Notes: generated from the letters alone by a model not told the origin. A stretch of DNA of 64,000 nucleotides from Spirochaetia bacterium (GCA_965140585.1 OZ223269.1:736001-800000), one strand, 5' to 3'; positions 20,672 to 37,092 are shown, numbered from the stretch's first letter. Program-made: numbers and translations.

Positions 20672-21538
20672 TCAGGATTTAATATTTTTCATTGCTTCAT
20701 CTGCAAGATATGAACTGCGGACCAGCGGTGCGGATGAAACATGTAGAAATCCTAGTTTCATCGCTTTTTCCGCGTACATGTCAAACTGTTCCGGTGTAGT
20801 GTATTCGATTATCGGGTGATGTTTATCTGAAGGTGAAAGATACTGTCCGACTGTAAGAAAATCACAGCCGGCCTTTCTGAGATCACTGAAAACCTCAATA
20901 ACTTCATCGGTTTTTTCACCGAGTCCGGTCATCAGCCCTGATTTAGTGTAGATTTTATCAGAAAAAGTTTTTACTTTTTCAAGAAGTTCAAGTGACTGCC
21001 GGTAGTCGGCCATCGGACGCACTTCATCATAAAGCCGCGGTACAGTTTCAATGTTGTGATTTATAATATGAGGACCGGCATATATAACTTTTTTCAGGTC
21101 ATCGGTAACGCCCTGGAAATCAGGTATAAGAACCTCGATAATTACATCTGAATATGCTTTTTTTATTGCGGTAATTACATTCGCGAAATGATCGGAGCCG
21201 CCGTCGGGGAGATCGTCTCTTGTAACCGATGTTATAACGACATGTTTCAGCTTTAATTCTTTGACAGCCTGCGCAATATTCTCCGGTTCAGAAGATAATA
21301 CATCTTCAGGAGTTCCGCCTGATACGTTGCAGAAGGTACAGTTTCTCGTGCATACCTTTCCCAGAATCATAAAAGTAGCTGTTTTTCTGTTAAAGCATTC
21401 ACCCTTGTTCGGGCAGGCAGCTTCTTCGCAGACAGTATTAAGATTAAGAGACTCAAGAAGGTTTTCAACAAAGGAAAAATCAGCTCCCGCACGGTATCTT
21501 ACTTTAAGCCATTCCGGCCTGCCTGAATTAGATTTCAA
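20672..21538 (-). CDS. lipA: lipoyl synthase
   Basis: [20 protein letters not shown] and RSSY motifs. Confidence 0.97.
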
Positions 21539-22205
21539 GTATTTCTCCTATGCTTTTCTCAGCAATGTCTACTCTGAAGACCTTCGAAAAATGTTTAAGT
21601 GTCAGTTGTTTTACCAGTTCAAAGTCGACTGCTTTCCGAAGTTCTTTCTCAAGAGACGTTACGCTGCGATCAGCCAGTCCGCAGGGAATTATCCAGTCAA
21701 AATGCCTCAGGTTGGTCTTTACATTAAATGCAAAGCCGTGAAAACTTATCCACTTCCGTACAGCTATCCCGATTGCTGTTATTTTTCTCGATCCGATATA
21801 TACGCCTGTGTATTTACCCTTGTCCGATGTTGTTTCAATTCCGTATTCTTCTTTAAGCAGATTCTCAATTACACTCTCAAGCATGCTGACATAAAGATGA
21901 AGATCCTTTCCGAATTCTTCAAGCCTCAGTATCGGGTATCCAACTAGCTGGCCGGGACCGTGATAGGTTACATCGCCTCCGCGTTCAACATCAAAGAGTT
22001 CAACGCCTTCATCTTTTAGCATATCGTCTGTGGCAAGAATGTTTTTTCTTTCGGTTCGCCGCCCCATAGTTAATACCGGGTTGTGCTCAACAAAGAAAAG
22101 GGTGTTTGAAAGTTTGTTCTGCTGAATGAGGGATACAGCCTTATGCTGTATCTCCAGGGCTTCACCGTAATTCATTCTGCCTAAATCAACAAAATTCAAA
22201 ATCAT
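21528..22205 (-). CDS. lipB: octanoyltransferase
   Basis: [38 protein letters not shown]. Start probably MILNF at 22205. Confidence 0.95.
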
Positions 22206-22331
22206 AAACAGGAGTATACTTAAAAACAGCAATTTTTAATAGAGAGGAAAATATTCTGAATTATTAACCAAATGTTGGTTTGCGAAAATTCGAAACTTCA
22301 TTATATAATATCCATATATGAGGAGAGGAAT

Positions 22332-23615
22332 ATGGACAGAGTGATTATCATTATTTTGGGCGGCGGAAAGGGTACCAGGCTTTATCCTCTTACAAAGGAA
22401 CGTGCAAAACCAGCAGTTTCTTTCGGCGGAAAATACAGACTTATTGACATCGCCATATCAAACAGTATTAATTCCGGTTTCAGACAGATTTATATTCTTA
22501 CCCAGTTTGAATCGGCATCGCTTAACCTTCATGTCAACAGGGCATATCAGTTTGATGTATTTTCAAAGGGCTTTGTTGAAATCCTTGCAGCCTCACAGAC
22601 TCATTCAAGCAGCGGATGGTATGAGGGCACAGCTGATGCTGTAAGAAAAAACCTTCAGCGTTTTGCAGATAACCAGCCCACGCATTATATGATTTTATCC
22701 GGAGACCAGCTGTATAAGATGGATTTAAAAGATTTCCTGAACAAGCACAAGGAACGGGCTGCCGAAATTTCTATTGCATCCACCCCTGTTACAAGGACAG
22801 ATGCTAATGAACTTGGAATACTTCAGACGGATAATAAAAATACAATCGACATGTTTCTTGAAAAGCCGGGTCCCAGCCTGGATATAAATGATTATAAAAT
22901 TCCCCAGGAAGTTGCCGAACGTAACTCGATACGACCGGAATCCGGAAAAGACTATCTGGCTTCTATGGGTATCTATCTTTTTAATGCTGATGTTATGCAC
23001 AGATGTCTGGAATCTGACTTCACCGATTTCGGCAAGGAGATTATTCCGGAGGCTATAAAAAGTCTTAATGTTAAATCATATGTATACAACGGCTATTGGG
23101 AGGATATCGGAACGATTAAAAACTTCTATGAGGCTAACATCAACCTTGCTTCAATAGAGCCGAACTTCAATCTGTATGATGAAGAAAACCCTGTATATAA
23201 CTATAGAAGGCATCTTCCTCCCTCAAAAATCAATTCCTGTACTTTCAAACAGTCTCTTGCAGCTGAAGGCTCAATTATAACTGATGCATCAATCTCATAT
23301 TCAATTGTCGGTGCAAGAACCATAATTTCAGATGGAGCTACACTTGACGGCGTATACTGTATGGGTGCCGACTTTTATGAAACACCCGAGCAGATAGAAG
23401 ATAACAGAAAGAAGAATATTCCGAATGTGGGCATAGGCCGCGGCGCTATCATAAAAAGGGCAATAATCGATAAAAACGCCAGAATAGGCGCTCACTGTCG
23501 TATAGGAATAGATAATTTTGAGCGCAGGGACGGAGATTACGGCAATTATCATATAGTTGACGGAGTTCTGATTATTCATAAAAATGCAATTCTTCAGGAT
23601 GGAACTGCAATCTGA
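22332..23615 (+). CDS. glgC: glucose-1-phosphate adenylyltransferase (plant/cyanobacterial-like type)
   Basis: ILGGGKGTRLYPLT, RAKPAVSFGGKYRLID, GTADAVR, MGADFYE; AGGAG SD. Confidence 0.96.
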   Translation: MDRVIIIILGGGKGTRLYPLTKERAKPAVSFGGKYRLIDIAISNSINSGFRQIYILTQFESASLNLHVNRAYQFDVFSKGFVEILAASQTHSSSGWYEGTADAVRKNLQRFADNQPTHYMILSGDQLYKMDLKDFLNKHKERAAEISIASTPVTRTDANELGILQTDNKNTIDMFLEKPGPSLDINDYKIPQEVAERNSIRPESGKDYLASMGIYLFNADVMHRCLESDFTDFGKEIIPEAIKSLNVKSYVYNGYWEDIGTIKNFYEANINLASIEPNFNLYDEENPVYNYRRHLPPSKINSCTFKQSLAAEGSIITDASISYSIVGARTIISDGATLDGVYCMGADFYETPEQIEDNRKKNIPNVGIGRGAIIKRAIIDKNARIGAHCRIGIDNFERRDGDYGNYHIVDGVLIIHKNAILQDGTAI

Positions 23616-25612
23616 AAAACAATAAACCTTTTAACCAGCTGATTCAGGAAGATTCCTATCTCTCGCCCTATGCCGGAAATCTTCAGAGACGAATAGATCT
23701 GTATAACTACAGGAAGCATCACCTGCTTGAAAGTATCGAAGGTTTCGGCAGGTCATTTGAATATTACGGAGTTCATAAACAGGGCAAAAACACCTGTATA
23801 CGCGAATGGGCTCCTAACGCTGATGAAATGTATCTGCTATCGGACCGGACCTCATGGCTCTGTTCGGATGATTACCGGTTCAGCCGTCTGAATGAACACG
23901 GGGACTGGGAAATTATACTGCCTGAAGGTGTGCTGGAACATGGAGATTATTTCAGGCTTTATCTGAAGTGGAAGGGCGGTGAAGGTGACCGTATTCCTGC
24001 ATATGCCACAAGGGTTGAGCAGGACAGTCAGACATACATTTACTGCTCACGAATGTGGAACCCGGCGCAGGAATATAAATGGTCTGTAAAAGATTTTACC
24101 CCATCCAGGGAACCGGTTATTTACGAAGCCCACATTGGAATGGCGGCGGAACATTATGGTATAGGGACATTCAATGAATTTCGTGAGAATGTCCTGCCGA
24201 GAATAATCTCTGCGGGCTTTAATACCGTTCAGTTTATGGCCCTCATGGAACATCCTTATTACGGGTCCTTCGGTTATCAGGTTGCTAATTTCTTTGCATT
24301 AAGTTCCAAATACGGGACACCCGATGAATTCAAGTTTCTGGTAGATGAATGTCACCGCAACGGTGTAGCTGTAATTATGGATCTTGTTCACAGCCATGCG
24401 GTTAAAAATGAACTTGAGGGCTTAAGTAATTTCGATGGAACCCCCTATCTGTATTTTCATGAGGGGCCCCGCGGATATCATCCGGCATGGGATTCAAGAT
24501 GCTTTGACTATTCCAACAGCAATGTGATTAATTTTCTGCTTTCAAACTGTGTCTACTGGATTGAAGAATACCATATTGATGGCTACCGTTTTGACGGTGT
24601 GACAAGTATGCTCTATCATGATCACGGTCTGGGAGCTTCCTTTGATAACTATGACAAGTATTTCGGCGCCAATACTGATGAAGATGCCGTATGCTACCTT
24701 TCTCTTGCAAATCATCTGATACACAGCATTAAACCTGATTTTATTACTATTGCCGAAGATATGAGCGGTATGCCGGGAATGGCAAGGGAGGCAGAAGCGG
24801 GGGGCTGCGGCTTTGATTACCGCTTGGCAATGGGTATACCTGATTTCTGGATAAAGTTGCTTAAGGAAAAGAGCGATGAACAGTGGAGTCCCGGCGAAAT
24901 ATGGGGAGTGCTTAATAACCGCAGATTTACTGAAAAGCATATAGCATATTCTGAAAGTCATGACCAGGCGCTGGTTGGCGATAAAACCCTTATATTCCGC
25001 ATGCTTGATTCTGCTATGTATACAGATATGTCTATCGGTACCCAATCGTTAACAGTCAGCCGGGGAATTGCCCTTATAAAGATAATAAATATGCTTACAT
25101 TCTCCCTGGGCGGAGACGGTTATATGTGTTTTATGGGGAATGAATTCGGCCATCCGGAATGGATTGATTTTCCAAGGGAGGGAAACGGCTGGAGCTATCA
25201 TTATGCAAGGCGTCAATGGTCTCTCAGCAGCAACAGGGATTTGAGGTACGGAAGAATACTGGAATTTACTGGTGATATGCTTCATCTGTGCAGTGATGTT
25301 CTTAAGAGCAGTCATCCGGGCCTTCTTTGTCTTCACGAAGATGATCAAGTTCTTGCCTATAGCCGGGGAGAGCTGTATTTTATAGTCAATATGAGCGGAA
25401 CTAAGTCATACCGTGACTACAGAATAAATGTTCCTGCGGGAAGTTATCATCTTCTTCTTGATTCTGATTCAGAAAAGTACGATGGTAGTGGAAGGATCCC
25501 CGGTAATCTTGTACTTAAAGCTGCAGATTACAAAAGCGATTCCGGTTGGATTACTCCATACCTTCCGACAAGGACAGTCCTTGTCTTCAGAAGGACAAGT
25601 CCCGGAGGATAA
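23612..25612 (+). CDS. glgB: 1,4-alpha-glucan branching enzyme, GH13_8 (eukaryote/Bacteroides-like); probable CTG start
   Basis: EHPYYGSFGYQV, DLVHSH, DGYRFDGVTSM, AEDMSG, ESHDQALVGDKT, FMGNEFGHPEWIDFPR. The conserved N-terminus (LIQEDSYLSPY...YYGVH...REWAPNA) lies in frame upstream of ATG 23828. Confidence 0.93.
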   Translation: MKNNKPFNQLIQEDSYLSPYAGNLQRRIDLYNYRKHHLLESIEGFGRSFEYYGVHKQGKNTCIREWAPNADEMYLLSDRTSWLCSDDYRFSRLNEHGDWEIILPEGVLEHGDYFRLYLKWKGGEGDRIPAYATRVEQDSQTYIYCSRMWNPAQEYKWSVKDFTPSREPVIYEAHIGMAAEHYGIGTFNEFRENVLPRIISAGFNTVQFMALMEHPYYGSFGYQVANFFALSSKYGTPDEFKFLVDECHRNGVAVIMDLVHSHAVKNELEGLSNFDGTPYLYFHEGPRGYHPAWDSRCFDYSNSNVINFLLSNCVYWIEEYHIDGYRFDGVTSMLYHDHGLGASFDNYDKYFGANTDEDAVCYLSLANHLIHSIKPDFITIAEDMSGMPGMAREAEAGGCGFDYRLAMGIPDFWIKLLKEKSDEQWSPGEIWGVLNNRRFTEKHIAYSESHDQALVGDKTLIFRMLDSAMYTDMSIGTQSLTVSRGIALIKIINMLTFSLGGDGYMCFMGNEFGHPEWIDFPREGNGWSYHYARRQWSLSSNRDLRYGRILEFTGDMLHLCSDVLKSSHPGLLCLHEDDQVLAYSRGELYFIVNMSGTKSYRDYRINVPAGSYHLLLDSDSEKYDGSGRIPGNLVLKAADYKSDSGWITPYLPTRTVLVFRRTSPGG

Positions 25613-25613
25613 G

Positions 25614-27587
25614 ATGACTCCATTAGACAGAATCAAAAGTATAGTAACTGACACCTTTGAAGGACTGACATCCGAATGGCTGATAACTAATTCAAAGGGC
25701 GGATTTTCATCATCTACTGCCATAGGCTGCCATACAAGGAAATATCACGGACTGCTTGTTACCACTCTTCCGGAAAGAGAGGGGCGCATTCATTTTCTCT
25801 CATCCATAGAAGAAAATATTAATAGCTCCAGTCAAATCAGGCTTGGGAATAATATATACCCCGGAGTGATGTATCCGGAGGGATATGGATATATCAGGGA
25901 ATTCGGTACTCTTCCGGTTCCGACATGGATTTACAGTTTCGGTGATATTCTTTTGAAGAAAGAGATACTGATGCGTGATGAAGAGGCTTCAGTATTAATT
26001 GTATATACCCTTATGGAAGGTGAGGAAACTCTTCCCGTTGAACTGAGGCTGCTTTTTACCTTTCGCGACAGCCACACAACAACCAGAGAAAATATAGATT
26101 TAAAAAAAGATATCAGCTTCAGTCAGGATGGGTATAGTATTCAGCCTTATTCAATGCTGCCTCCGGCCTATGTTTCATTCAGCGGAGACTGGGCGCATTT
26201 TGGTGATTTTTACTGGGATCATAATGTCATATATGAAATTGAACGGGAGAGAGGTCTGGATTTTGAAGAGGATCGCTTTGTTCCCGGACATGAAAAAATC
26301 ACACTGAATAAGGGGCAGCCATTCGTTGTAAAAGTTTCAGCAGGTGCAGAAAACAGATCTGACGGAGATACTGTTGAAGAATACGGTAAAATCCTGGCTA
26401 AAAAGATAAGTTTTACAGAAAACATTAAAACAGATAAGGATCTGCTTTCACTGGGAGCAAATGATTTTCTTGTCAGCAGTTTTTCCGGTCTGAAATCGGT
26501 TAATGCCGGTTATCCGTGGTTCGGAGAGTGGGGTCGGGATACCATGATAGCGCTTCCGGGGCTTACCTGGTGCAACGGCAATCTTGCCTGGGGGCTTGAT
26601 GTTTTAAAAGATTATGCTGGTATGATTAAAAACGGCATGCTGCCTAATACTATCGGTGAGTCACAGGGCTTTACGTCCTACAATTCAATTGATGCAGGTC
26701 TGCTTTACTGCAGGGCGGTTATGAAACTCTTAGAGTACGGCTACGGAAATAAGTCCGGTGAAGTGGATTTTATACGTTCTGTTTTGTTTCCGGCAGTCAC
26801 GAGCATCGTGGAAGCCTTTTTGAATAATATCGTCCCTGAAACAAGACTTGATTCCAGCGGGCTGATATCCACCGGAAATGAAAATACTCAGCTCACCTGG
26901 ATGGATGCTACTTCCAAAGGGAAGCCTGTAACATCAAGGCACGGCTATGCAGTAGAGCTTAATGCAATGTGGTATGACAGCTTTATCCTCATTAAAAAGC
27001 TCTGCGCAATGATAAAAACAGACGTACCGGCCTATGCGGATGAGTATATCAATAAATTACCTGCAGCTTTTAAAGAGGCTTTCTGGAATGTGGAAGATGG
27101 CTTTTTAAGCGATACCTGTGTGAACGGTGCGGCGGATCATAAGCTGAGGCCTAATCTTCTGTTTGCAACCTCAGCTTCAGATGGTCTTATTGATCGTGAT
27201 ATAAGAAGAGCATCAATAAATATGGTAAAAGAGAAACTTCTTACACCAATGGGATTAAGAACCTTGTCTCCGGATCATTCCGATTTCCGGGGAGAATATA
27301 CAGGCGGTTCTGATGAAAGGGATGCAAAATACCACCAGGGAACTGTATGGCCCTGGCTGATTGGTGTCATGGTTGAATCAAGTCTTCTATATTGCGAAGA
27401 TAAGAAAAAAGAATTAAAATTCTGGGGTGATTATCTGGATAATCTTCTTGATAATCATTTATACAGGCAGGGTGTGGGTTATATTTCCGAAATCTTCGAC
27501 GGGGCAATGCCGGAGAACGGAAAGGGATGCTTCGCACAGGCCTGGAGTACCGGTGAATTATTAAGGGCATACTCTCTGCTGAAATAA
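25614..27587 (+). CDS. amylo-alpha-1,6-glucosidase (GH133, GDE_N + GDE_C)
   Basis: EWLITNSKGGFSS, TRKYHGLL, AGYPWFGEWGRDTMI, QLTWMDA, YHQGTVWPWL, AQAWS. Start MTPLD at 25614 behind GGAGGA. Confidence 0.92.
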   Translation: MTPLDRIKSIVTDTFEGLTSEWLITNSKGGFSSSTAIGCHTRKYHGLLVTTLPEREGRIHFLSSIEENINSSSQIRLGNNIYPGVMYPEGYGYIREFGTLPVPTWIYSFGDILLKKEILMRDEEASVLIVYTLMEGEETLPVELRLLFTFRDSHTTTRENIDLKKDISFSQDGYSIQPYSMLPPAYVSFSGDWAHFGDFYWDHNVIYEIERERGLDFEEDRFVPGHEKITLNKGQPFVVKVSAGAENRSDGDTVEEYGKILAKKISFTENIKTDKDLLSLGANDFLVSSFSGLKSVNAGYPWFGEWGRDTMIALPGLTWCNGNLAWGLDVLKDYAGMIKNGMLPNTIGESQGFTSYNSIDAGLLYCRAVMKLLEYGYGNKSGEVDFIRSVLFPAVTSIVEAFLNNIVPETRLDSSGLISTGNENTQLTWMDATSKGKPVTSRHGYAVELNAMWYDSFILIKKLCAMIKTDVPAYADEYINKLPAAFKEAFWNVEDGFLSDTCVNGAADHKLRPNLLFATSASDGLIDRDIRRASINMVKEKLLTPMGLRTLSPDHSDFRGEYTGGSDERDAKYHQGTVWPWLIGVMVESSLLYCEDKKKELKFWGDYLDNLLDNHLYRQGVGYISEIFDGAMPENGKGCFAQAWSTGELLRAYSLLK

Positions 27588-27615
27588 AGGAGAGTCCTTG
27601 CCGCAAGGAGCGGTT

Positions 27616-30060
27616 ATGCAGAATACCTATGGGTTACCTGAAAAAGGTATAAGTACCGAAGAAATCAAACAGGGATTTCTTGAACATCTTAAATACAGCC
27701 TTGCTGTGAAGCTTGAGAACAGCCACAGTACAGACAAGTATATTGCCCTTGCTTTTATGGTAAGGGATCGAATAATTGACCGGTGGTTTGCCTCCAAAAA
27801 AACACACGAAGAGCAGAAATTAAAATTCATTAACTATTTCTCTTTTGAATTCCTTATGGGCAGATCAATGTCAAATAACATGATCAACCTCGGGATAAAG
27901 AATGAAGTAGATGCAATGCTTGAGGAAGTAGGTGTTGAATGGGAGGATATAAGCGCTGCGATGGTTGACAGCGGCCTTGGGAACGGCGGCCTTGGAAGAC
28001 TTGCCGCCTGCTTTCTTGATTCGCTGGCTACTCTGGAGTTTCCTGCCTACGGGTACGGGCTGCGGTATAAGTATGGTTTTTTCAAGCAGACCATAGTCAA
28101 CGGCTACCAGGTTGAGGAGGCTGATGACTGGCTTCGTTTCAAGAATCCATGGGAGATAAGGCGGAATGATATTCCGGTTACCGTACAGTTCGGCGGCCGT
28201 GTAGCGAGAAACAAGAAAGGCCGCTGCTTCTGGGTTGATACAAACGATATTATCGGTGTTCCGTATGATACGCCTATAGTCGGTTATGGAGGAAACACTG
28301 TTAATACCCTGCGACTCTGGGATTCCAAAAGTTCGGAACAGTTTGATTTTCAGGCGTTTAATCAGGGGGATTACTATAACACTGTTGATGAAGAGGTTCT
28401 TGCTGAAACATTAACACAGGTTCTGTATCCGAACGACGCAATTTATTCAGGCAAGGAATTGAGGTTCAAGCAGCAGTTTTTCTTTGTCAGTGCTTCTTTG
28501 CAGGATATATTCAGAAGATTCAAACGCCTGAATGAGCCTATAGAGAATCTCAGTAATTATATGGCTATTCAGCTCAATGATACCCATCCTGCAATTGCAG
28601 TCCCGGAACTTATGCGTATTCTTGTGGATATTGAAGAAATTGACTGGGATACAGCCTGGGATGTAACAAGAGCATGTCTGGGATATACGAACCACACATT
28701 GATGCCTGAAGCCCTTGAAACATGGCCTGTAAGCATGTTTGAACGCTTTCTGCCGCGTCATCTTGAGATAATCTACCAGATTAACCATTTCTTCCTACAG
28801 AAGGTCACAGGGATGTATCCGGGTGATATGGGAAAACTTTCCCGGCTTTCGCTTATAGAAGAGCATGGTGAAAAAAGGATAAGAATGGCACCTCTTGCAA
28901 TTCTTGGTTCACATTCTGTAAACGGGGTTGCTGAAATCCATTCAAAACTGATTAAAGAACGGCTTGTTCCCGATTTCTATGAAATATTCCCGGAGCGTTT
29001 TAATAACAAAACAAATGGGATAACTCAGCGAAGATGGCTTCGCAAGGCAAATAAACCGCTTTCCGAGCTGATCACCTCGAGTATCGGGGATGGATGGATT
29101 ACAAATCTCTCGGAACTCAAGGGTCTTAAAAAGCACGTTGATGACAGTTCCTTCCTTGAAAAACTAGATCAGGTTAAAAAGCAGGGCAAGATTGATCTTG
29201 CAGCGCACTGTAAGAAAGAATTCGGTTTCATAATGGATCCGGAATCCATTTTTGATATTCATGTTAAACGTATACATGAATATAAAAGACAGCTGCTTAA
29301 TGTCCTGCATATTATAGTTTTATACAACAGGATAAGATCCGGGGAGAGAATATACCCCAGAACTTTTATATTCAGCGGTAAAGCTGCTCCGGGCTATGAT
29401 ATGGCCAAAATGATAATTAAGCTTATAAATAATGTAAGCCATGTTATTAACGGCGATCGAAAAGTAAGTGAGATGCTGAAGGTCTTTTTCCTTCCCAATT
29501 ACAGCGTTTCTCTTGCTGAGAAGATTTTTCCGGCTGCAGAGATTTCTGAACAGATATCCACCGCCGGCACAGAGGCTTCAGGTACGAGCAATATGAAATT
29601 CATGCTTAACGGAGCTCTTACAATGGGAACGCTGGACGGAGCGAATATTGAGATTGTTGAGGAAGCCGGTGAAGAAAATATGTTCATCTTCGGAATGAAA
29701 ACAGAAGAAGTCACTGAAAAAAGAAACGGTTATAAACCGGTAGACTATCTTCTCAATTACCCGGAGATAGCTGAAATCTTCAAACTTATGAACAGCGGCT
29801 TTTTCAATATCAGCGAACCGGGGATTTTTGATCAGCTTATAAAGAATCTTATGGATTATGATTACTATATGAATCTTGCTGATCTTCCGGCATACATCGA
29901 TGCACAGAAACTTGTTGAAACCAGATACAGGGACAGGGAGTCCTGGCTGAAATCTTCACTGATTAACATTGCAAGCGCAGGGAAATTTTCTTCAGACAGG
30001 ACTATAAATGAGTATGCTAAAGACATATGGGACCTGAAGCCCTGCCATGTTAAAAAATAA
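27616..30060 (+). CDS. glgP: glycogen phosphorylase
   Basis: GLGNGGLGRLAACF, QLNDTHP, KRIHEYKRQ, EASGTSNMK. ATG 27616 behind AAGGAG; TTG 27598 is an alternative start. Confidence 0.97.
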   Translation: MQNTYGLPEKGISTEEIKQGFLEHLKYSLAVKLENSHSTDKYIALAFMVRDRIIDRWFASKKTHEEQKLKFINYFSFEFLMGRSMSNNMINLGIKNEVDAMLEEVGVEWEDISAAMVDSGLGNGGLGRLAACFLDSLATLEFPAYGYGLRYKYGFFKQTIVNGYQVEEADDWLRFKNPWEIRRNDIPVTVQFGGRVARNKKGRCFWVDTNDIIGVPYDTPIVGYGGNTVNTLRLWDSKSSEQFDFQAFNQGDYYNTVDEEVLAETLTQVLYPNDAIYSGKELRFKQQFFFVSASLQDIFRRFKRLNEPIENLSNYMAIQLNDTHPAIAVPELMRILVDIEEIDWDTAWDVTRACLGYTNHTLMPEALETWPVSMFERFLPRHLEIIYQINHFFLQKVTGMYPGDMGKLSRLSLIEEHGEKRIRMAPLAILGSHSVNGVAEIHSKLIKERLVPDFYEIFPERFNNKTNGITQRRWLRKANKPLSELITSSIGDGWITNLSELKGLKKHVDDSSFLEKLDQVKKQGKIDLAAHCKKEFGFIMDPESIFDIHVKRIHEYKRQLLNVLHIIVLYNRIRSGERIYPRTFIFSGKAAPGYDMAKMIIKLINNVSHVINGDRKVSEMLKVFFLPNYSVSLAEKIFPAAEISEQISTAGTEASGTSNMKFMLNGALTMGTLDGANIEIVEEAGEENMFIFGMKTEEVTEKRNGYKPVDYLLNYPEIAEIFKLMNSGFFNISEPGIFDQLIKNLMDYDYYMNLADLPAYIDAQKLVETRYRDRESWLKSSLINIASAGKFSSDRTINEYAKDIWDLKPCHVKK

Positions 30061-31675
30061 CTGTGTTCTAACCAGTGTAAAAAACTGGAAGTTTGAAATA
30101 TCCGATATAGACGGAATCCTGAACCCTGTTAAAGATTTTAACAGGGTAACAGGTTCTTCAGAACTGATACTGCGCCTTGTATTTGAACAGCCTCCTGATT
30201 CGGATGAGTTTTATATACACACAGATCTCCCTGAAACTCAATGGGGCAGGATTAAATTTAAAAACAATGAAGATTCCTGTATCTTCACGCTTTCCATAGA
30301 TCTCCCGAAAGGCGGCTTTTTCAGTTTCCGCTTTTTTATGGTACAGGGTCATGATGCCTTCTGGGAGCCCGGCGGCTATCACCGTCTGCTTGTTGATCCT
30401 GAGTTTATGCATAACCTGCGAATGTATACGCTTATTCCTACTGTATCAGGTACTATAGCGGACTGGATTGAGAAACTGGATGAAATCTCTGATCTTGGTT
30501 TTAATGCGGTTCATATACTTCCGTTCACAGCCATGGGGCCTTCTCAAAGTCCTTACGCTGCAGCGGATCTTTTTAAACTCGATTCGAGGTACAGTGGTGA
30601 TGAAACTGATTTTGAACTGTTTGCTCAAAAGGCTGCGGATAAAGGCATCAGGATATGCTTTGACATAGTATTAAACCATTTGAGTGATAAAAATGAACTA
30701 ACAAGAACCAATGGACACTGGTTTATTTCCGACAAGGATCGTAATGACGGACTGAAAAGAGCCGGCTGCTGGCATATGAACAGCTGGATTTCCTGGGAAG
30801 ACCTGGTGCTGATAAACTATGACCATCCTGCAGAAAAAATCAGACATGATATCTATGAATATATGCTTTCATATGTGCTTTTCTGGGTTAAGAAGGTTGA
30901 GAAATGCGGTGCAATAATCCGGCTTGATAATCTGCATTCATCCAATATGGACTTTATAAAGTGGTTTATTCACCGCTTACGGAAGTTCGCACCTGGAATT
31001 ATTATTCTTTCTGAATTTTTTGGTTCAGAAGAAGATCTTATTAAAGGTGTCTCATCACTTGGTCTAAATCTTCTGACGGCAAATACCTGGGAACAGCCCT
31101 TTGCTCCGAGACTTCAGCAATATCTTCAGTTTATCCATGACAGCAAGGATACTCTCCGATACATGATTCAGCCTACTTCACATGACACCGGCGCTGCTGC
31201 ACAGCTTTTCGGAACAGCAATATCTTCAATACCAAGGTATTTCTGCTGTGCTCTTATGGGTACCGGGCAGTCCGGAGCCGTTCAGGGCTTTGAGGCGGGA
31301 TATCCAAGAAAGGTAGAGTTTATCGGTTATCAGGGAAAGGTCGATTTAGGCGGTAACCTTGATTTAACAGATTTTATAAGATCTGTTAACAGCATTCTTT
31401 CAGCTGAGGCGCTGCTGAGAAAGGGCGGAAATATCAAGTTTATTGAAACCGGTAACGACAGCCTGATAGTCTGTGCGCGTACAGACAGTAAGAGCGGCAG
31501 AAAACTGCTTCTTGCCGCAAATTTTAACACTAATGCAGGCGAAAGTTTTTCAGCAGGACATATACCTGATTTTAAGTTAATATATGCTCTGGATGCACAT
31601 ACCGAATATGTAAATGAGCATCTTATTGTTAATTTTGAAAAATGCGGGGTCGCTGCATTACTTATAAAAGAATGA
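30047..31675 (+). CDS. GH13 protein resembling the 4-alpha-glucanotransferase half of eukaryotic glycogen debranching enzyme
   Basis: GGYHRLLVDP, GFNAVHILPF...SPYA, DIVLNH, ISWEDLV, RLDNLHSS, LSEFFGSEED, TSHD. Confidence 0.8.
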   Translation: MLKNNCVLTSVKNWKFEISDIDGILNPVKDFNRVTGSSELILRLVFEQPPDSDEFYIHTDLPETQWGRIKFKNNEDSCIFTLSIDLPKGGFFSFRFFMVQGHDAFWEPGGYHRLLVDPEFMHNLRMYTLIPTVSGTIADWIEKLDEISDLGFNAVHILPFTAMGPSQSPYAAADLFKLDSRYSGDETDFELFAQKAADKGIRICFDIVLNHLSDKNELTRTNGHWFISDKDRNDGLKRAGCWHMNSWISWEDLVLINYDHPAEKIRHDIYEYMLSYVLFWVKKVEKCGAIIRLDNLHSSNMDFIKWFIHRLRKFAPGIIILSEFFGSEEDLIKGVSSLGLNLLTANTWEQPFAPRLQQYLQFIHDSKDTLRYMIQPTSHDTGAAAQLFGTAISSIPRYFCCALMGTGQSGAVQGFEAGYPRKVEFIGYQGKVDLGGNLDLTDFIRSVNSILSAEALLRKGGNIKFIETGNDSLIVCARTDSKSGRKLLLAANFNTNAGESFSAGHIPDFKLIYALDAHTEYVNEHLIVNFEKCGVAALLIKE

Positions 31676-31689
31676 TACCGGAGCTGTAA

Positions 31690-33162
31690 GTGAAAGAAGT
31701 AAAGAAAATACTCATGGTTTCAAGTGAAGCTGTACCATTTGCAAAAACAGGCGGTCTTGCAGAGGTAGTTACAGAGCTCTCACTTCAGTTAAAAAGACTG
31801 GGGTATGATGTAAGAATAATAATGCCGAGATATTATCATATTGATCGTTCAGAACTTAAAAAGCATGATGAAGCCCTGGGAATATGGCTTGGACATGGTG
31901 AAGAATGGACAGCCGTATATGAAACAGTTCTGCCTGATTCTGAAGTTCCGGTTTATTTTCTAGATCATGAGCGTTTTTATGGACGGGACGGTATATATGG
32001 CCATAGACCGGACGAAGGCTTTAAGGACAATGCAGCCCGTTTTGCTTTGCTGTCCAGGGGGGCTTTTCAGCTTTGCCGAATGCTGCACTGGATTCCTGAT
32101 GTCCTGCATTGTCATGACTGGCCGTCAGCGCCGGCATGTTATCTGCTGAAAAAAGAAGAACAGGCAACAGAGTTTTCTGACACATCAAGTGTTCTGACCA
32201 TTCACAATCTCGGCTATCAGGGTATTTTTGATCTGAATGATGTTGTTTACCTTCAAAAAGAGACTGATCGACTGAATCTTTCGGCGCTTGAGTTCTCGGG
32301 CGCACTGAACTTTCTGAAATCAGGAATAATAACCGCTGATAAAATTACAACAGTGTCTCCGAATTACGCCGAAGAAATTAAACGTCCTGAACACGGTTTT
32401 AATATGGACGGACTGCTCAATTACAGGCACGAGGACCTTCACGGAATTCTTAACGGTATTGATTACGACGTCTGGTCACCTGAAAAGGACAAGTACATCG
32501 AGCCTGATAATTTCAGTGCTGATTCACTTAAGAATAAAGCTTCTGTCAAAAAACTCCTGCAGAAGGAAATTGGCCTGAAGGTTGATCCGAAGGTGCCGCT
32601 GGTTGGAATGATAAGCCGACTGGTAGAGCAGAAGGGCTTTAAGGAACTATGCGCTCCGAATTATGGATCTCTGTATTCGATTTGCAGCAGTATGAACGTA
32701 CAGTTTGTGCTTCTCGGCAGCGGAGATCGCTGGTGTGAAGATGAACTCAACAGTCTGGCTCAGGGGCTTCCTAATTTATCTGTTTATATCGGGTTTAATA
32801 ACCGTCTGGCACATCTGATCGAGGCCGGTTCTGATTTTTTCCTTATGCCCAGCATTTATGAACCCTGCGGCCTGAACCAGATTTACTCGCTTTCCTACGG
32901 AACGCTGCCGATAGTTCGCTCTACAGGCGGTTTAGCCGATACTGTTGAAAATTATAATCAGGAAACCGGCAGCGGTACAGGCTTCGTCTTTGATGATATA
33001 AACCCGGAGGTTCTGTATAATGTAATTCACTGGGTGGTCGATACATGGGAGAACAGACGGCCTCATATTACAAAAATGCGGAAAGCTGCTATGAAAAAAA
33101 GATTCGACTGGGTGAAATCCGCCGAAGCTTATATCGAAATATATGAGAGTATGAAGGATTAA
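31690..33162 (+). CDS. glgA: glycogen synthase (GT5)
   Basis: SEAVPFAKTGGLA, HCHDW, HNLGYQG, EPCGLNQ, TGGLADTV; GTG start. Confidence 0.96.
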   Translation: MKEVKKILMVSSEAVPFAKTGGLAEVVTELSLQLKRLGYDVRIIMPRYYHIDRSELKKHDEALGIWLGHGEEWTAVYETVLPDSEVPVYFLDHERFYGRDGIYGHRPDEGFKDNAARFALLSRGAFQLCRMLHWIPDVLHCHDWPSAPACYLLKKEEQATEFSDTSSVLTIHNLGYQGIFDLNDVVYLQKETDRLNLSALEFSGALNFLKSGIITADKITTVSPNYAEEIKRPEHGFNMDGLLNYRHEDLHGILNGIDYDVWSPEKDKYIEPDNFSADSLKNKASVKKLLQKEIGLKVDPKVPLVGMISRLVEQKGFKELCAPNYGSLYSICSSMNVQFVLLGSGDRWCEDELNSLAQGLPNLSVYIGFNNRLAHLIEAGSDFFLMPSIYEPCGLNQIYSLSYGTLPIVRSTGGLADTVENYNQETGSGTGFVFDDINPEVLYNVIHWVVDTWENRRPHITKMRKAAMKKRFDWVKSAEAYIEIYESMKD

Positions 33163-33165
33163 ATT

Positions 33166-34131
33166 TCAGTCTTCCTGATCATCAATCTGCAGTATTTCTT
33201 CATCATCAAGGTAAAGTCCATGCTGCTTTGGAATGGCTCCGGAACTTATTTTCTGAATCAGCCGTAGAAGTTCCCTGCTGAAAGGGCTGTCAGGCGATTC
33301 AAGTACTGCAGGTTTTCGTGAAAATATTGACCGTCCGACACTTTGATCATCAGGCAGGCTGCCGATATCTTCAACTTCAATTCCAATATTTTTAACAGTT
33401 ATTTCTCTCAACTTTGAACCAAGAGCACTGTTGCCTGCATCAGAAACCCGGTTAAGTACTATCCAGGGGAAAAAGTCATGCAGTTTACTTTCTGCAACTT
33501 CACCGGAATGCCTGGAATATCCGTATAATTCATTTATTAAATCGGCACTGAAAGATCTACCCGATCCTTCAAGCTTCTGTGAAACAAAGTCCTGTATAAT
33601 TTTTCTTTCATCACTTTTCGCCTTGAAACTTCTGAAAAGCAGTCTGAAAACAGCGGTTTTTATAAAGGAGTAGGCATTCAGGATTGATGTAGTTTCAGGC
33701 GTGGTAATAATAATTCCGGGACTTGAAATAAGAAAAAAATCTATAGTGTTGTAGGCAGTGCCGGCACCAAGATCGAGCAGTACATAATCTGCTTCAATTT
33801 CAAGAATCTGTTTTATTATCCTTTGTTTAATAAAAAAGGGCAGATTTCCAGTCCCGGGATACAGCATGTCGCCTGGAATCATAAAAAGATTATCGTTGAT
33901 TGCCGGTACCATAATATCTTCAATATTCGATTCCTGTTTATTGATGAAGGCTCCCATACCGTTATGACGGTTTCGTACGCCAAGACAGGTGTGAAGATTA
34001 CTTCCACCTAAATCGAGATCAATTAACACAGTTTTAAATCCTAAGTTGGACAGGTGTACTCCGGCCGATCCGGTGATTACTGTTTTTCCGACGCCGCCTT
34101 TTCCGCTTGCTATTGGTAAAATTACTGCCAT
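33166..34131 (-). CDS. MinD/FlhG-family P-loop ATPase
   Basis: ASGKGGVGKT, DLDLGGSNLHT, DLGAGT, TPETTS. Start MAVIL at 34131. Confidence 0.88.
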   Translation of the reverse strand: MAVILPIASGKGGVGKTVITGSAGVHLSNLGFKTVLIDLDLGGSNLHTCLGVRNRHNGMGAFINKQESNIEDIMVPAINDNLFMIPGDMLYPGTGNLPFFIKQRIIKQILEIEADYVLLDLGAGTAYNTIDFFLISSPGIIITTPETTSILNAYSFIKTAVFRLLFRSFKAKSDERKIIQDFVSQKLEGSGRSFSADLINELYGYSRHSGEVAESKLHDFFPWIVLNRVSDAGNSALGSKLREITVKNIGIEVEDIGSLPDDQSVGRSIFSRKPAVLESPDSPFSRELLRLIQKISSGAIPKQHGLYLDDEEILQIDDQED

Positions 34132-34209
34132 ACTTTCAGAATAGCGGAGGCCCGTGTATATTGCAAACAAAAAATTGTATTTAAAATTAAAATAAGATAT
34201 CATTAGCTG

Positions 34210-34869
34210 ATGAAAGTAACTGCATTCAGCGGAAGCCCGCGTAAAAATTCAAACAGCAGAAGAATATTGGATTCTTTTTTAAAAGGAGCAGAGACTGCAG
34301 GCGCAGAGATTAGTCTGTATGAAACTGATAAACTTGATATAAAGCCCTGTACGGGCTGCCTTGTGTGTAATGTAAAGAAGAAATGCATTATTAAAAATGA
34401 CGAATGGCAAGCCCTAAGCAGTGAGATACTGGCTTCGGACATCCTTGTTTTTGCAACACCGGTTTATTTTCATCATATGACAGCTTCACTGAAAAAAATA
34501 CTTGATCGGTTCAGATCATTTATCACGGTTCAAATTACAAGGGAAGGTATTCTTCATACTCCCAACATAGCCTGGTCGAAGAAGTTTCACCTTATAACTG
34601 CTATGGGCAGCAGCTCGGATGAAGATGCGGAGCCTCTTGTAGATCTTTTTAAATTCATAACTTCAGATTTTGGTGAAGGAAACAGTTTTACCTGTCAAAA
34701 CTCAACCAGACTTGCTGTTTCAGGTCAGCTTGATATGAATGCTTCAAGACTGAAGGCTCTGTATCGAATGATGAAGATTCCCGAAGATCTTGCCCAGCCA
34801 GATTATGAACGCAATCTTCAAATTCTGAAAGAGGCTGAAGAAACCGGTTATAAACTTGCCATGGAGTAG
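34210..34869 (+). CDS. flavodoxin family / iron-sulfur flavoprotein
   Basis: GSPRKNSNS, CTGCLVC..C, ATPVYF. Confidence 0.85.
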   Translation: MKVTAFSGSPRKNSNSRRILDSFLKGAETAGAEISLYETDKLDIKPCTGCLVCNVKKKCIIKNDEWQALSSEILASDILVFATPVYFHHMTASLKKILDRFRSFITVQITREGILHTPNIAWSKKFHLITAMGSSSDEDAEPLVDLFKFITSDFGEGNSFTCQNSTRLAVSGQLDMNASRLKALYRMMKIPEDLAQPDYERNLQILKEAEETGYKLAME

Positions 34870-34872
34870 TTT

Positions 34873-37092
34873 ATGTTTGATATAGAAAAATCACTCGAAC
34901 AGCAGATCCTGTCATTTAATCGCTCAAGACCGGTGGTGATCTTCACTGAATCTGTTGATATCAGGGTGCTCGAAGCCGTATCGTACCTATGCCGTTATAT
35001 AAAACCTGTTCTGCTGGTATCTGAAGACCGAATTCGCTCTCTATATGAGAACGAGGCGGCTGATATTGACAGGAGCCGTGTAGAATTCACAATTTCAGAA
35101 TCACGATTTATAAATATTGCAGCTGAACATGGTATTCTGGATGAATTCTGTGTTTTTTACAGCAGCCAGCTTGAATCTGAAGGAATCAAACCAAAGCTTG
35201 AGGAGGTAAAAGCTTCAGTTTCGGATCCGTGCCTGTTCGGAATTCTATGTGTTAAATTCGGATATGCGGATATGGTCGTGGGCGGAATAACGCATGAACC
35301 AATATCTTTTTTCAGACCGATGCTGAAGTATCTGAAAAAAAGGAAAGTTCAGTGTGAAACAGGTATTTTTGTTTTATCAGATGAGCATTCTGAAAAGGTT
35401 TTTCCAAAGAATATAATTGTATTTGGGGATGTCGGTGTTAATGCGACCATGGATGAAGAAACCCTTGCAAATATAGCCGTTGATATCTGCACTATTACAA
35501 GAAATATTATCCCTGAAGAGGTTCTGTCCAATATAAACGGAGCAATTGTTTCATATTCCAATCACGGCTCGGATGAAGGCCCTTCACCGAAACTTGTTAA
35601 TAAGGCTTCCTCCCTTGTTCCCGGACTGCTCAAAAAGTACATCAGTATGGATCGGCGTTACCTGACAATAAACATTGAAGGTGAGGTCAAGGTCAATGTT
35701 GCCCTGTCTGAAAGGTCTGCAATGTATTACAGCAAGCCTGGAGAAAAAGACTGGAAGGGAGGAACAAATGTAATAATATGTCCAAACCTTGATATGGGAA
35801 ATATGCTGTACCATCTTTATGCTACACGTTTCCCCGATGCCAAAAAATTTACCATAATTTCAGGCATAGGGTTTTCTGCTGTTGATCTTGCAAAGGACTG
35901 CAGCGCTGATGACATCCGTCTTGCTATTAAAGCAACAATGCTTAATCTTTTTCAGAAAGAAAATTGGGATAAGACTCCGCATGATCATTTTTTTCCGATG
36001 TATCGAATTCTGTCTATTAATCCCGGGTCAACTTCAACAAAGGTTAGTCTTTATGAGGGAGAATACCGGATTCTCTCAGAAGAACTGCAGCATAAGCCTG
36101 AAGAATTGAAAGAGTTTGAGAATAAACCTGTAACAGCGCAGTTTGAATACCGCAAGAGGATGGTTGAAAAATTTCTTACGGACAATGGCTACTACATTAA
36201 GGATCTTGATGCTGTGTCGGCCAGGGGCGGCCTGCTCAAGCCAATTCCACATGGAACCTATGCCGTAAATGAACTTATGCTTAAGCATTTAAAAGCTGGT
36301 ATAAGCGGGGAGCATGCATCAAATCTTGGGGGAATAATCGCTGATTCTCTTACAAAAGGCAGCGCTGTCCCCTCATTTATTACTGACCCCGTGGTTGTTG
36401 ATGAGGCTGATGACAGGGTTAAGATAACCGGAATAAAAAGCATTAAAAGAGAAATTATCAGTCATGCCTTGAATCAGATAGCCTCGGCCAGAAAGTATGC
36501 GTATGAGAACGAGACTTTCTATGAAAACATAAATGTCATTGTCTGCCATATGGGCGGCGGTATTTCCATCGGAGCGCATCACAGGGGGCGATATGTCGAT
36601 GTAAACAATGCTCTGAACGGTGAAGGCCCCTTTTCACCTCAGAGATCCGGGACTCTACCGGCCGGCGCTTTGATAGATCTCTGTTTTTCCGGCACATTAA
36701 GCGAAAAAGAGATAAGACGTCTGAATGTCGGAGGCGGAGGTTTATATGACCTGCTCGGAACTACAGATCTGAGAGAAATCATTGAACAGGCAAAGACCGA
36801 TACCTATGCTGAAACAGTACTTGAAGCCCTCGTATATCAGACTGCAAAGACGATAACCTCCTTACTTCCGGCTTTTAACGGGGAGGCGGTAGAGCAGGTA
36901 ATTCTTACCGGAGGAATGGTTAGGAGTGATTTGCTGGTTTCCAGGATAGAGGGTCTCATCATTCAGCTTAACTGCGGAATAACAGTTTACCCCGGTGAAA
37001 ACGAAATGGACGCTCTTGCAGCCGGTGCGGTAAGAGTACTCCAGGGGAAGGAGCAGATAAAACAATACAGTGCTGAACTTTTTACTAATTAA
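34873..37092 (+). CDS. fusion of phosphate acetyl/butyryltransferase and butyrate kinase
   Basis: N-terminal PTA_PTB-like half (ESVDIRVLEA, GDVGVN, SYSNHGS, PNLDMGN, DLAKDCS); C-terminal Buk (INPGSTSTK, RGGLLKP, HASNLG, DPVVVDE, HALNQ, HMGGGIS, YPGENEM). Confidence 0.9.
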   Translation: MFDIEKSLEQQILSFNRSRPVVIFTESVDIRVLEAVSYLCRYIKPVLLVSEDRIRSLYENEAADIDRSRVEFTISESRFINIAAEHGILDEFCVFYSSQLESEGIKPKLEEVKASVSDPCLFGILCVKFGYADMVVGGITHEPISFFRPMLKYLKKRKVQCETGIFVLSDEHSEKVFPKNIIVFGDVGVNATMDEETLANIAVDICTITRNIIPEEVLSNINGAIVSYSNHGSDEGPSPKLVNKASSLVPGLLKKYISMDRRYLTINIEGEVKVNVALSERSAMYYSKPGEKDWKGGTNVIICPNLDMGNMLYHLYATRFPDAKKFTIISGIGFSAVDLAKDCSADDIRLAIKATMLNLFQKENWDKTPHDHFFPMYRILSINPGSTSTKVSLYEGEYRILSEELQHKPEELKEFENKPVTAQFEYRKRMVEKFLTDNGYYIKDLDAVSARGGLLKPIPHGTYAVNELMLKHLKAGISGEHASNLGGIIADSLTKGSAVPSFITDPVVVDEADDRVKITGIKSIKREIISHALNQIASARKYAYENETFYENINVIVCHMGGGISIGAHHRGRYVDVNNALNGEGPFSPQRSGTLPAGALIDLCFSGTLSEKEIRRLNVGGGGLYDLLGTTDLREIIEQAKTDTYAETVLEALVYQTAKTITSLLPAFNGEAVEQVILTGGMVRSDLLVSRIEGLIIQLNCGITVYPGENEMDALAAGAVRVLQGKEQIKQYSAELFTN

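Follow-up and report, generated by a model that had tools for sequence, protein, structure and literature searches.

How does a bacterium clear the branch stubs left by glycogen phosphorylase (GlgP) if it has neither GlgX nor MalQ? The question is raised by a glycogen operon in a 64,000-nucleotide (nt) stretch of DNA from a Spirochaetia bacterium (GCA_965140585.1 OZ223269.1:736001-800000), here called the window. At the centre of the operon, all on the + strand, lie the open reading frames (ORFs) for a 657-amino-acid (aa) GH133 protein (25614-27587), for an 820-aa GT35 glycogen phosphorylase, glgP (27598-30060), and for a 542-aa GH13 protein (30047-31675), which we label GH13x. A first-pass annotation of the window had noted that the GH133 and GH13 genes flank glgP and that the operon lacks glgX and malQ. 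Both observations were borne out, and the second holds for the whole genome, which is 98.49% complete: GH77, the family of MalQ, gave 0 matches, and no GlgX passed the cut-off (best TIGR02100 score 54.6 bits, cut-off 640.9).

We propose that GH13x and the GH133 protein are probably stand-alone bacterial counterparts of the 4-alpha-glucanotransferase (GT) and glucosidase (GC) halves of the eukaryotic glycogen debranching enzyme (GDE; AGL/Gdb1). The proposal is based on homology and conserved catalytic residues, on the arrangement of the operon, on co-occurrence across genomes and on the lack of GlgX and GH77 in the window's own genome. That the operon encodes a split transferase-plus-glucosidase module, which clears the branch stubs left by GlgP, has in our estimate a probability of about 0.5. 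In such a module GlgP would trim the outer chains to short stubs. GH13x, as a retaining enzyme with a GDE-type active site, would then move the alpha-1,4-linked part of a stub onto another chain end, and the GH133 protein would hydrolyse the leftover alpha-1,6-linked glucose. We infer transferase rather than hydrolase chemistry for GH13x, and likewise the substrate, the order of the steps and any physical contact between GH13x and GH133. The arrangement suggests that the two-step branch removal held to be eukaryote-only may also exist in bacteria.

GH13x and the transferase half of the debranching enzyme

GH13x is one member of a bacterial protein family that is small and widespread. A scan of 1.84 billion representatives yielded 143 sequences at E<=1e-30, roughly 70 of them of the GH13x type, and 286 relatives were found at E<=0.001 among 8000 candidates scored. 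The family occurs in Spirochaetia, Syntrophia (including the cultured Syntrophus buswellii), Phycisphaerae, Verrucomicrobiota and Kiritimatiellia, and further in Fibrobacterota, Bacteroidota and Armatimonadota. Among the matches listed, 120 of 120 relatives carry both PF00128 and PF14701. GH13x itself matches Pfam hDGE_amylase (PF14701) with 62 bits (cut-off 27) and Alpha-amylase with 52.6 bits. Only positions 6-108 of the 439 positions of the hDGE_amylase model are aligned, because the model includes the eukaryotic insertion.

A profile of 27 family members was compared with solved structures. Human GDE (8zeq) was matched best (2.5e-25), followed by Candida glabrata GDE (3.4e-20), the amylase 4gkl (2.7e-17) and GlgE (2.9e-15). 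Profile positions 29-236 align with residues 16-233 of human GDE and positions 223-346 with residues 447-566, and positions 387-526 align with residues 665-803 of the yeast enzyme. The blocks are colinear and jump from human residue 233 to 447. GH13x thus skips a eukaryotic insertion of ~210 aa, which spans 220-251 residues in the eukaryotic relatives examined (P0127, P0123); the first-pass annotation had predicted this gap. Pfam gave a divided answer: all 27 members pass hDGE_amylase (best E 1.1e-24), and only one of the 27 matches hGDE_N.

The seven motif strings that the first-pass annotation had listed for the 542-aa protein are all in the GH13x translation. The human counterparts that it had given (GGGYIVVDP, GYNMIHFTPL, DVVYNH, ICWGDSV, RLDNCHST and VAELFTGSED) appear in the 8zeq alignment, and THD appears in that of C. 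glabrata GDE. The roles of the human residues, both the triad D526, E555 and D627 and the sugar-contacting positions, were taken from the available text of PMC12219210, where W461 and F557 are described as stacking on the bound sugar. D294, E323 and D380 of GH13x align to the human triad and are invariant in 27/27 family members; they are the putative nucleophile, acid/base and transition-state residue, respectively. Seven further positions, R292, N295, H379, W225, F325, D206 and N210, align to human R524, N527, H626, W461, F557, D215 and N219 and are equally invariant (27/27).

The signature regions separate GH13x from GlgE. Region I reads D[IMVL]VLNH in the GH13x family, DIVLNH in eukaryotic GDE and DIAL-QC in GlgE; region II reads IRLDNLHSS, IRLDNCHST and FRVDNPHTK, region III [SA]E[FY]F, AELFT and AEAFTRP, and region IV T[STN]HDT, THDN and NTPDI, in the same order. 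The canonical NH and HD of regions I and IV are therefore kept in GH13x and missing from the two GlgE sequences compared. Overall, the conserved motifs of GH13x match GDE, not GlgE. Streptomyces coelicolor GlgE is reported, in the text available for PMC4526890, to bind the donor phosphate through N352, K355, Y357 and N395. By sequence alignment, K355 and Y357 are replaced in GH13x by Ile248 and Trp250, as in eukaryotic GDE, and the two Asn are kept.

The AlphaFold model of GH13x (predicted local distance difference test, pLDDT, 90.8; predicted TM score 0.90) shows a (beta/alpha)8 barrel with a short B domain, placed between an N-terminal beta domain (about residues 1-118) and a second beta domain at the C terminus. 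VIA-align superposed residues 21-542 of the model on residues 4-867 of C. glabrata GDE (Z 35.7, 4.1 A, 508 residues). Some shorter family members (P0316-P0321, about 413-478 aa) start at profile position 129-157 and still score 381-426 bits. They do so without the N-terminal beta domain, which therefore seems dispensable in some lineages, unless these gene calls are truncated.

Maximum-likelihood (ML) trees were computed with IQ-TREE (LG+C20+F+G4, PMSF) from 39 rows sampled from six groups: 14 of the 27 GH13x family members (every second one), 10 eukaryotic GDEs, 3 bacterial GH13-GH133 fusions, 6 small bacterial GH13 proteins, 2 GlgE sequences and, as outgroup, 4 other GH13 proteins of the window's own genome. 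The GH13x family was sister to the 10 eukaryotic GDE transferase domains with a support of 95/91 (546 columns), and the catalytic domain alone gave the same placement (94/91, 433 columns). GlgE was placed apart from GH13x, and so was a clade formed by the small GH13 proteins and the fusions. Since the root is fixed by long outgroup branches, the trees do not give the direction of descent.

Several results pull away from GDE and have to be set against this placement. Searched as a single sequence, GH13x ranks the solved structures in reverse: GlgE (5cgm) is best with 4.1e-10 and human GDE follows with 8.2e-08. Foldseek also put GlgE first (2.0e-34, TMq 0.71-0.73); C. glabrata GDE came at ranks 29-34 (about 1e-23), yet with the highest TMq, 0.72-0.77. 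In VIA-align, GlgE reached Z 38.7 (root-mean-square deviation 5.7 A, 497 residues) and 3dhu, titled alpha-amylase, Z 36.9 (2.7 A, 385 residues); the maltogenic alpha-amylase AmyB (4gkl) is likewise among the neighbours at Z 35-37. GlgE, small amylases and GDE thus lie within about 3 Z units of each other, and the fold comparison does not discriminate between them. Small bacterial GH13 proteins of ~430 aa score higher against the family profile (131-170 bits) than eukaryotic GDEs do (66-90 bits). A hidden Markov model (HMM) of the N-terminal domain alone was run against 13,003 genome ORFs plus 21 eukaryotic GDE, fused, GlgE and small-amylase sequences; apart from GH13x itself, the only match was a weak one to a bacterial fusion (E 0.097), and none of the eukaryotic GDEs was matched. 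Equivalence of this domain to the M1 domain of GDE is therefore unproven at the sequence level. In the trees, forcing GH13x to group with GlgE cost 7.93 log-likelihood units (approximately unbiased, AU, test, p = 0.071), and forcing it to group with the small GH13 proteins and fusions cost 8.43 (p = 0.054). Neither alternative is rejected, so the tree support for a sister relationship with GDE is moderate and not decisive.

Homology of the GH13x family to the GDE transferase domain, as claimed by the first-pass annotation, is thus supported at moderate strength: the family profile, the Pfam result, the trees and the replaced Lys and Tyr speak for it, and the AU tests, the single-sequence search and the fold ranking hold it back. 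The same division applies to a grouping with GlgE or generic amylases, which the trees disfavour and the AU tests do not reject.

The GH133 partner, the operon and the genomic context

The second protein of the proposed module is encoded by an ORF that spans 25428-27587. Translation from the ATG at 25614 yields 657 aa, as in public gene calls (P0140). The protein, which corresponds to the GC half at the C terminus of eukaryotic GDE, matches Pfam GDE_N (206.9 bits) and GDE_C (309.8 bits), and 8 of its 8 matches among solved structures are GDE (8zeq 1.8e-15). D431, in the motif TWMD, aligns to human D1261. E626 (ISEIFDG) stands 15 residues before a QAWS motif and corresponds to C. glabrata E1492 by spacing; both residues are invariant in 24 of 24 homologues. 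The GH133 model (pLDDT 91.5) is matched best by residues 899-1523 of C. glabrata GDE, with Z 39.0. A GDE_C domain of the (alpha/alpha)6 type, including its two catalytic acids, is present in the protein.

Six genes on the + strand form the glycogen cluster. The first is glgC (22272-23615), for a glucose-1-phosphate adenylyltransferase (NCBIfam NF002772, 581.8 bits, cut-off 537; Pfam NTP_transferase and LbH_GLGC), which is separated by 212 nt from the gene of a eukaryote-type branching enzyme of 594 aa (23828-25612). The GH133 gene, glgP (Pfam Phosphorylase 1065.5 bits; TIGR02093 1142.2 bits) and the GH13x gene follow. The last gene, glgA (31690-33162), encodes a GT5 glycogen synthase of the ADP-glucose type (TIGR02095 505.1 bits, cut-off 328.45; Pfam Glyco_transf_5). 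Between the five genes that begin with the branching-enzyme gene, the intervals are 1, 10, -14 and 14 nt, the end of glgP overlapping the GH13x gene, and this spacing suggests a single transcription unit. A promoter and terminator consensus scan of 21500-34300 did not differ from shuffled sequence (26 vs 29.0 and 13 vs 10.7, respectively). Pfam and NCBIfam give plain names to five of the six genes, and GH13x reaches no NCBIfam cut-off.

The branching enzyme is also of a eukaryotic kind. Among solved structures it matches human GBE1 (4bzy, 569.5 bits, E 8.8e-170) and rice BEI (3amk, 555 bits) best; bacterial GlgB structures score at most 198.8 bits, and the protein remains below every NCBIfam cut-off for bacterial GlgB equivalogs. 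We read it as a likely GH13_8 member from these structure matches. Homologues of it adjoin GH13x in spirochaete loci and lie near GH13x in L053, L056 and L080.

Gene neighbourhoods were counted for 80 GH13x family loci, 44 of which have at least 5 kb on both sides. The order branching enzyme-GH133-glgP-GH13x-glgA recurs in 15 of the 80. GH133 lies within 10 kb of GH13x in 15/80 loci, 14 from spirochaetes and one from a member of the Planctomycetota, and a glucan phosphorylase does so in 22/80. Six of these 22 phosphorylases are of the DUF3417 type (5 from Phycisphaerales or Phycisphaeraceae, 1 from an unclassified bacterium). Among the 44 loci with longer flanks, GH133 was near in 14 and phosphorylase in 21. 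Linkage of the GH13x and GH133 genes is thus confined mainly to Spirochaetia.

At the genome level the two families occur together more widely. Within Syntrophales (121 genomes sampled), GH133 is present in 24 of 24 genomes with the GH13x family, compared with 59 of 97 without it; the Fisher p of 4e-05 for this difference is overstated because the genomes are kin. Only 4 of the 201 Spirochaetota genomes sampled have the GH13x family, and all four have GH133. GH133 was likewise present in 5 of 5 genomes traced from GH13x family loci in Syntrophus, Spirochaetia, Bacteroidales, Phycisphaerales and Fibrobacterota.

The window's genome has three GH13 genes besides those of the cluster, which are phosphotrehalase-like, alpha-glucosidase-like and sucrose-phosphorylase-like. 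Two GH57 genes lie outside the window (G000:C6, about 499,100-501,100, L111:1447-3453; and G000:C4, L110:1474-3072). One of the two has the middle and C domains of an alpha-amylase/4-alpha-glucanotransferase. The other is branching-enzyme-like, with a BE_C domain and 2b5d as its best solved relative (461 bits). These genes could supply transferase or second branching activities.

Two further ORFs of the window lie outside the glycogen cluster. The product of 34873-37092 (+), 739 aa, has a PTA_PTB phosphotransacetylase/phosphotransbutyrylase-like domain (residues 17-349) followed by a complete butyrate kinase (NF002834, 435 bits, residues 376-733) and looks like a fused two-step acyl-phosphate pathway. 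A 642-aa ORF at 17183-19111 (+) had no Pfam or NCBIfam match at E<=0.01.

Competing explanations

The genomic data also contain points that tell against a dedicated GH13x-GH133 module. No GH133 neighbour was found in 65 of the 80 loci, including that of S. buswellii, where the neighbours of GH13x are unrelated. GH133 is far commoner than the GH13x family and hence does not need GH13x. In Syntrophales the GH13x family shows no anticorrelation with GH77 (9/24 genomes with the family vs 32/97 without) or with GlgX (3/24 vs 4/97), and S. buswellii has all four of GH13x, GH133, GH77 and GlgX. The two-component pathway with phosphorylase that the first-pass annotation had put forward draws on homology, operon position and co-occurrence, and both the archaeal GH133 enzyme discussed below and the GH57 gene with 4-alpha-glucanotransferase domains weigh against it.

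The explanation that competes best is that the GH133 protein debranches directly by freeing entire short chains, in the manner of GlgX, and that GH13x is a MalQ-like 4-alpha-glucanotransferase or a maltodextrin-processing enzyme returning these oligosaccharides to GlgP. The pair would still consist of a transferase and an alpha-1,6 hydrolase, but the mechanism would not be the eukaryotic indirect one. We regard this as possible, although rather unlikely. According to the available text of PMC9142091, a stand-alone archaeal GH133 enzyme of Thermococcus gammatolerans (7vma) removes branches from maltodextrin and starch, optimally at a degree of polymerization (DP) of 13-24; such release of chains of DP 13-24 amounts to direct debranching. 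The GH133 model of the window matches 7vma with Z 33.8. A Sulfolobus GH133 null mutant over-accumulates glycogen, as stated in the review PMC11046441, which in its available text treats archaeal GH133 without a dedicated GH13 partner. GH133 also occurs in the 59 Syntrophales genomes without the GH13x family mentioned above, and because the window's genome has no GH77, some enzyme must process oligosaccharides. On the other hand, the nearest relatives of GH13x by profile and tree are GDE transferase domains, which act on polymer, and the sugar-stacking positions aligned to human W461 and F557 are invariant in the family. The best structural match of the GH133 protein is the GDE glucosidase domain and not 7vma, and GH13x coexists with GH77 in 9 of 24 Syntrophales genomes, so that it is not simply a substitute for MalQ.

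An improbable alternative is that GH13x is mainly a hydrolase, either an intracellular alpha-amylase or a maltogenic amylase, which cuts glycogen or dextrins beside GlgP and has no specific partnership with GH133. The high profile scores of small bacterial GH13 proteins, the structural neighbours 3dhu and 4gkl, the 65 loci without a GH133 neighbour and the public annotation of the family as 'alpha-amylase family glycosyl hydrolase' would fit this idea. However, GH13x has its region II and III motifs (RLDNxHS and AE[FL]F) in common with the transferases GDE and GlgE and not with the small amylases, which have GFRCDAAY in region II and AETLG in region III. GH133 is found in all examined genomes with the GH13x family (24/24, 4/4 and 5/5), and the ML trees separate GH13x from the small amylases, though the AU test falls just short of rejecting their grouping.

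A GlgE-like maltosyltransferase building alpha-glucan from maltose-1-phosphate is very improbable, despite the first rank of GlgE in the single-sequence and fold searches, the DNxH motif common to both, the unrejected tree grouping and the existence of hDGE_amylase-like GH13 domains fused to GlgE, since two of the four phosphate-site residues are replaced, regions I and IV are canonical, the GlgE N/S domain (GlgE_dom_N_S, PF11896) is found neither in GH13x nor elsewhere in the genome, no TreS passes the cut-off in that genome, and a glgC-glgA route is already present in the operon. The fused proteins (P0337, P0343; ~1110 aa) combine a GH13 domain scoring 212 and 184 bits, respectively, to the family profile with a complete GlgE (N/S domain, barrel and GLGE_C).

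Fusions, origin and comparison with known systems

Bacteria also possess GH13-GH133 fusions of their own. Among the 121 Syntrophales genomes, 6 have ~1430-aa ORFs with GDE_C, and none of these 6 has GH13x (0/6). One of these ORFs (L083:6825-11096, +, 1423 aa) carries Alpha-amylase, GDE_N and GDE_C and adjoins a DUF3417-type glucan phosphorylase; two more Syntrophales fusions, cut at their N-terminal half, match the GH13x family profile there. Fusions were also detected in L084 and L085 and in the representative scan (P0373-P0376, P0380, P0386, P0388, P0390, P0400-P0405), at about 1385-1489 aa, and P0374 and P0386, which were domain-scanned, have the same architecture. An alignment of the GH13x family with the fusion P0139 by hhalign gave a probability of 99.6 (E 6e-24). 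In the trees the GH13 half of the fusions falls in the clade of small ~430-aa GH13 proteins, not in the GH13x clade, and the closest solved relatives of these barrels are titled amylases (3dhu, 4gkl). The small clade itself tracks GH133: in Spirochaetota, GH133 is present in 25 of 35 genomes with a small GH13 protein, compared with 23 of 162 without any match.

At least one joining of a GH13 protein from this broader group to GH133 has therefore taken place in bacteria, separately from that in eukaryotes, and this supports a functional partnership of GH13 and GH133. It is not evidence for GH13x as the ancestor of the eukaryotic fusion. A search for longer relatives found no fused bacterial form of the GH13x clade among its 16 matches, which is weak evidence; the top 10 were eukaryotic GDEs and the rest long bacterial amylases. 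A 1501-aa ORF from a genome of the window's class (L109:1708-6213, -) has GDE_C (280-650), CBM48, a weak Alpha-amylase match and a pullulanase all-beta domain. It would be a GH133 protein fused to a GH13 of the direct-debrancher type, and its neighbours are GH31 and GH13 genes.

The first-pass annotation had compared the locus with a pre-fusion state of AGL, and the sister position in the trees is compatible with such an idea. We hold only tentatively, and would not presently favour, the further step that GH13x is the closest surviving relative of the GDE transferase half and that operons with GH133, GT35 and GH13_8 genes preserve the unfused state that gave rise to the eukaryotic indirect debranching enzyme and perhaps to a large part of cytosolic glycogen catabolism. 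If this were true, indirect debranching would not be a eukaryotic invention.

Reviews and commentaries on glycogen evolution, in the text available, treat direct debranching by GlgX as a bacterial hallmark and indirect debranching by a GH13_25-GH133 fusion as a eukaryotic one. The available part of a 2016 commentary (PMC4829877) states that no GH13-GH133 fusion had ever been observed in bacteria and takes indirect debranching as the defining trait of eukaryotes, and a 2014 phylogenomic survey (PMC4236520) lists, in its accessible portion, prokaryotes with only GDE_N-GDE_C proteins. No description of the GH13x family was found in open-access papers and preprints. What bears on the current view is a family in bacteria that is sister to the GDE transferase domain and operon-linked to GH133 and phosphorylase, together with the independent bacterial fusions and the branching enzyme of eukaryotic type that this operon also encodes. 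If the function were confirmed, the locus would provide two small, separable proteins with which the two-step mechanism could be tested in a bacterial system. It would explain how limit dextrin is cleared in bacteria that have neither GlgX nor MalQ, and it would bear on the origin of the enzyme that is mutated in glycogen storage disease III.

Compared with eukaryotic GDE, GH13x has the same catalytic triad, the same signatures in regions I-IV and several of the sugar-contacting residues, and the GH133 protein matches the C-terminal portion with both catalytic acids kept. Both genes lie beside a phosphorylase gene. The eukaryotic enzyme is one chain of ~1500 aa, GH13_25 fused to GH133, whereas the spirochaete has two polypeptides of 542 and 657 aa. 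Its barrel contains an insertion of 210-250 aa that GH13x does not have, and the spirochaete GH133 protein carries the bacterial GDE_N domain. The single-chain architecture hGDE_N-amylase-central-GDE_C is accordingly not that of the stand-alone GH13x.

GlgE (GH13_3) resembles GH13x in its N-terminal beta domain, its barrel with a short B domain, its C domain and the DNxH that follows the nucleophile. GH13x differs from it in lacking the N/S domain, in the exchange of the phosphate-binding Lys and Tyr for Ile and Trp and in its canonical regions I and IV; moreover, the family profile ranks GDE over GlgE, and the ML tree keeps the two apart. The small GH13 proteins and the fusions have related barrels, and the fusions join such a GH13 to GH133. 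They differ from GH13x in their canonical GFRCDAAY region II and their separate clade, and the small proteins have no N-terminal domain. With the GlgX and MalQ pathway, the GH13x-GH133 module would share the task of removing branch points left by GlgP, and in both cases the genes lie within a glg operon. GlgX, an isoamylase-type CBM48-GH13_11 enzyme, and MalQ are unrelated in detail to GH13x and GH133. The proposed product of GH133 would be glucose, whereas that of GlgX is maltotetraose; the GH13_11 label and this product are as given in the available text of PMC7965971 and PMC4829877.

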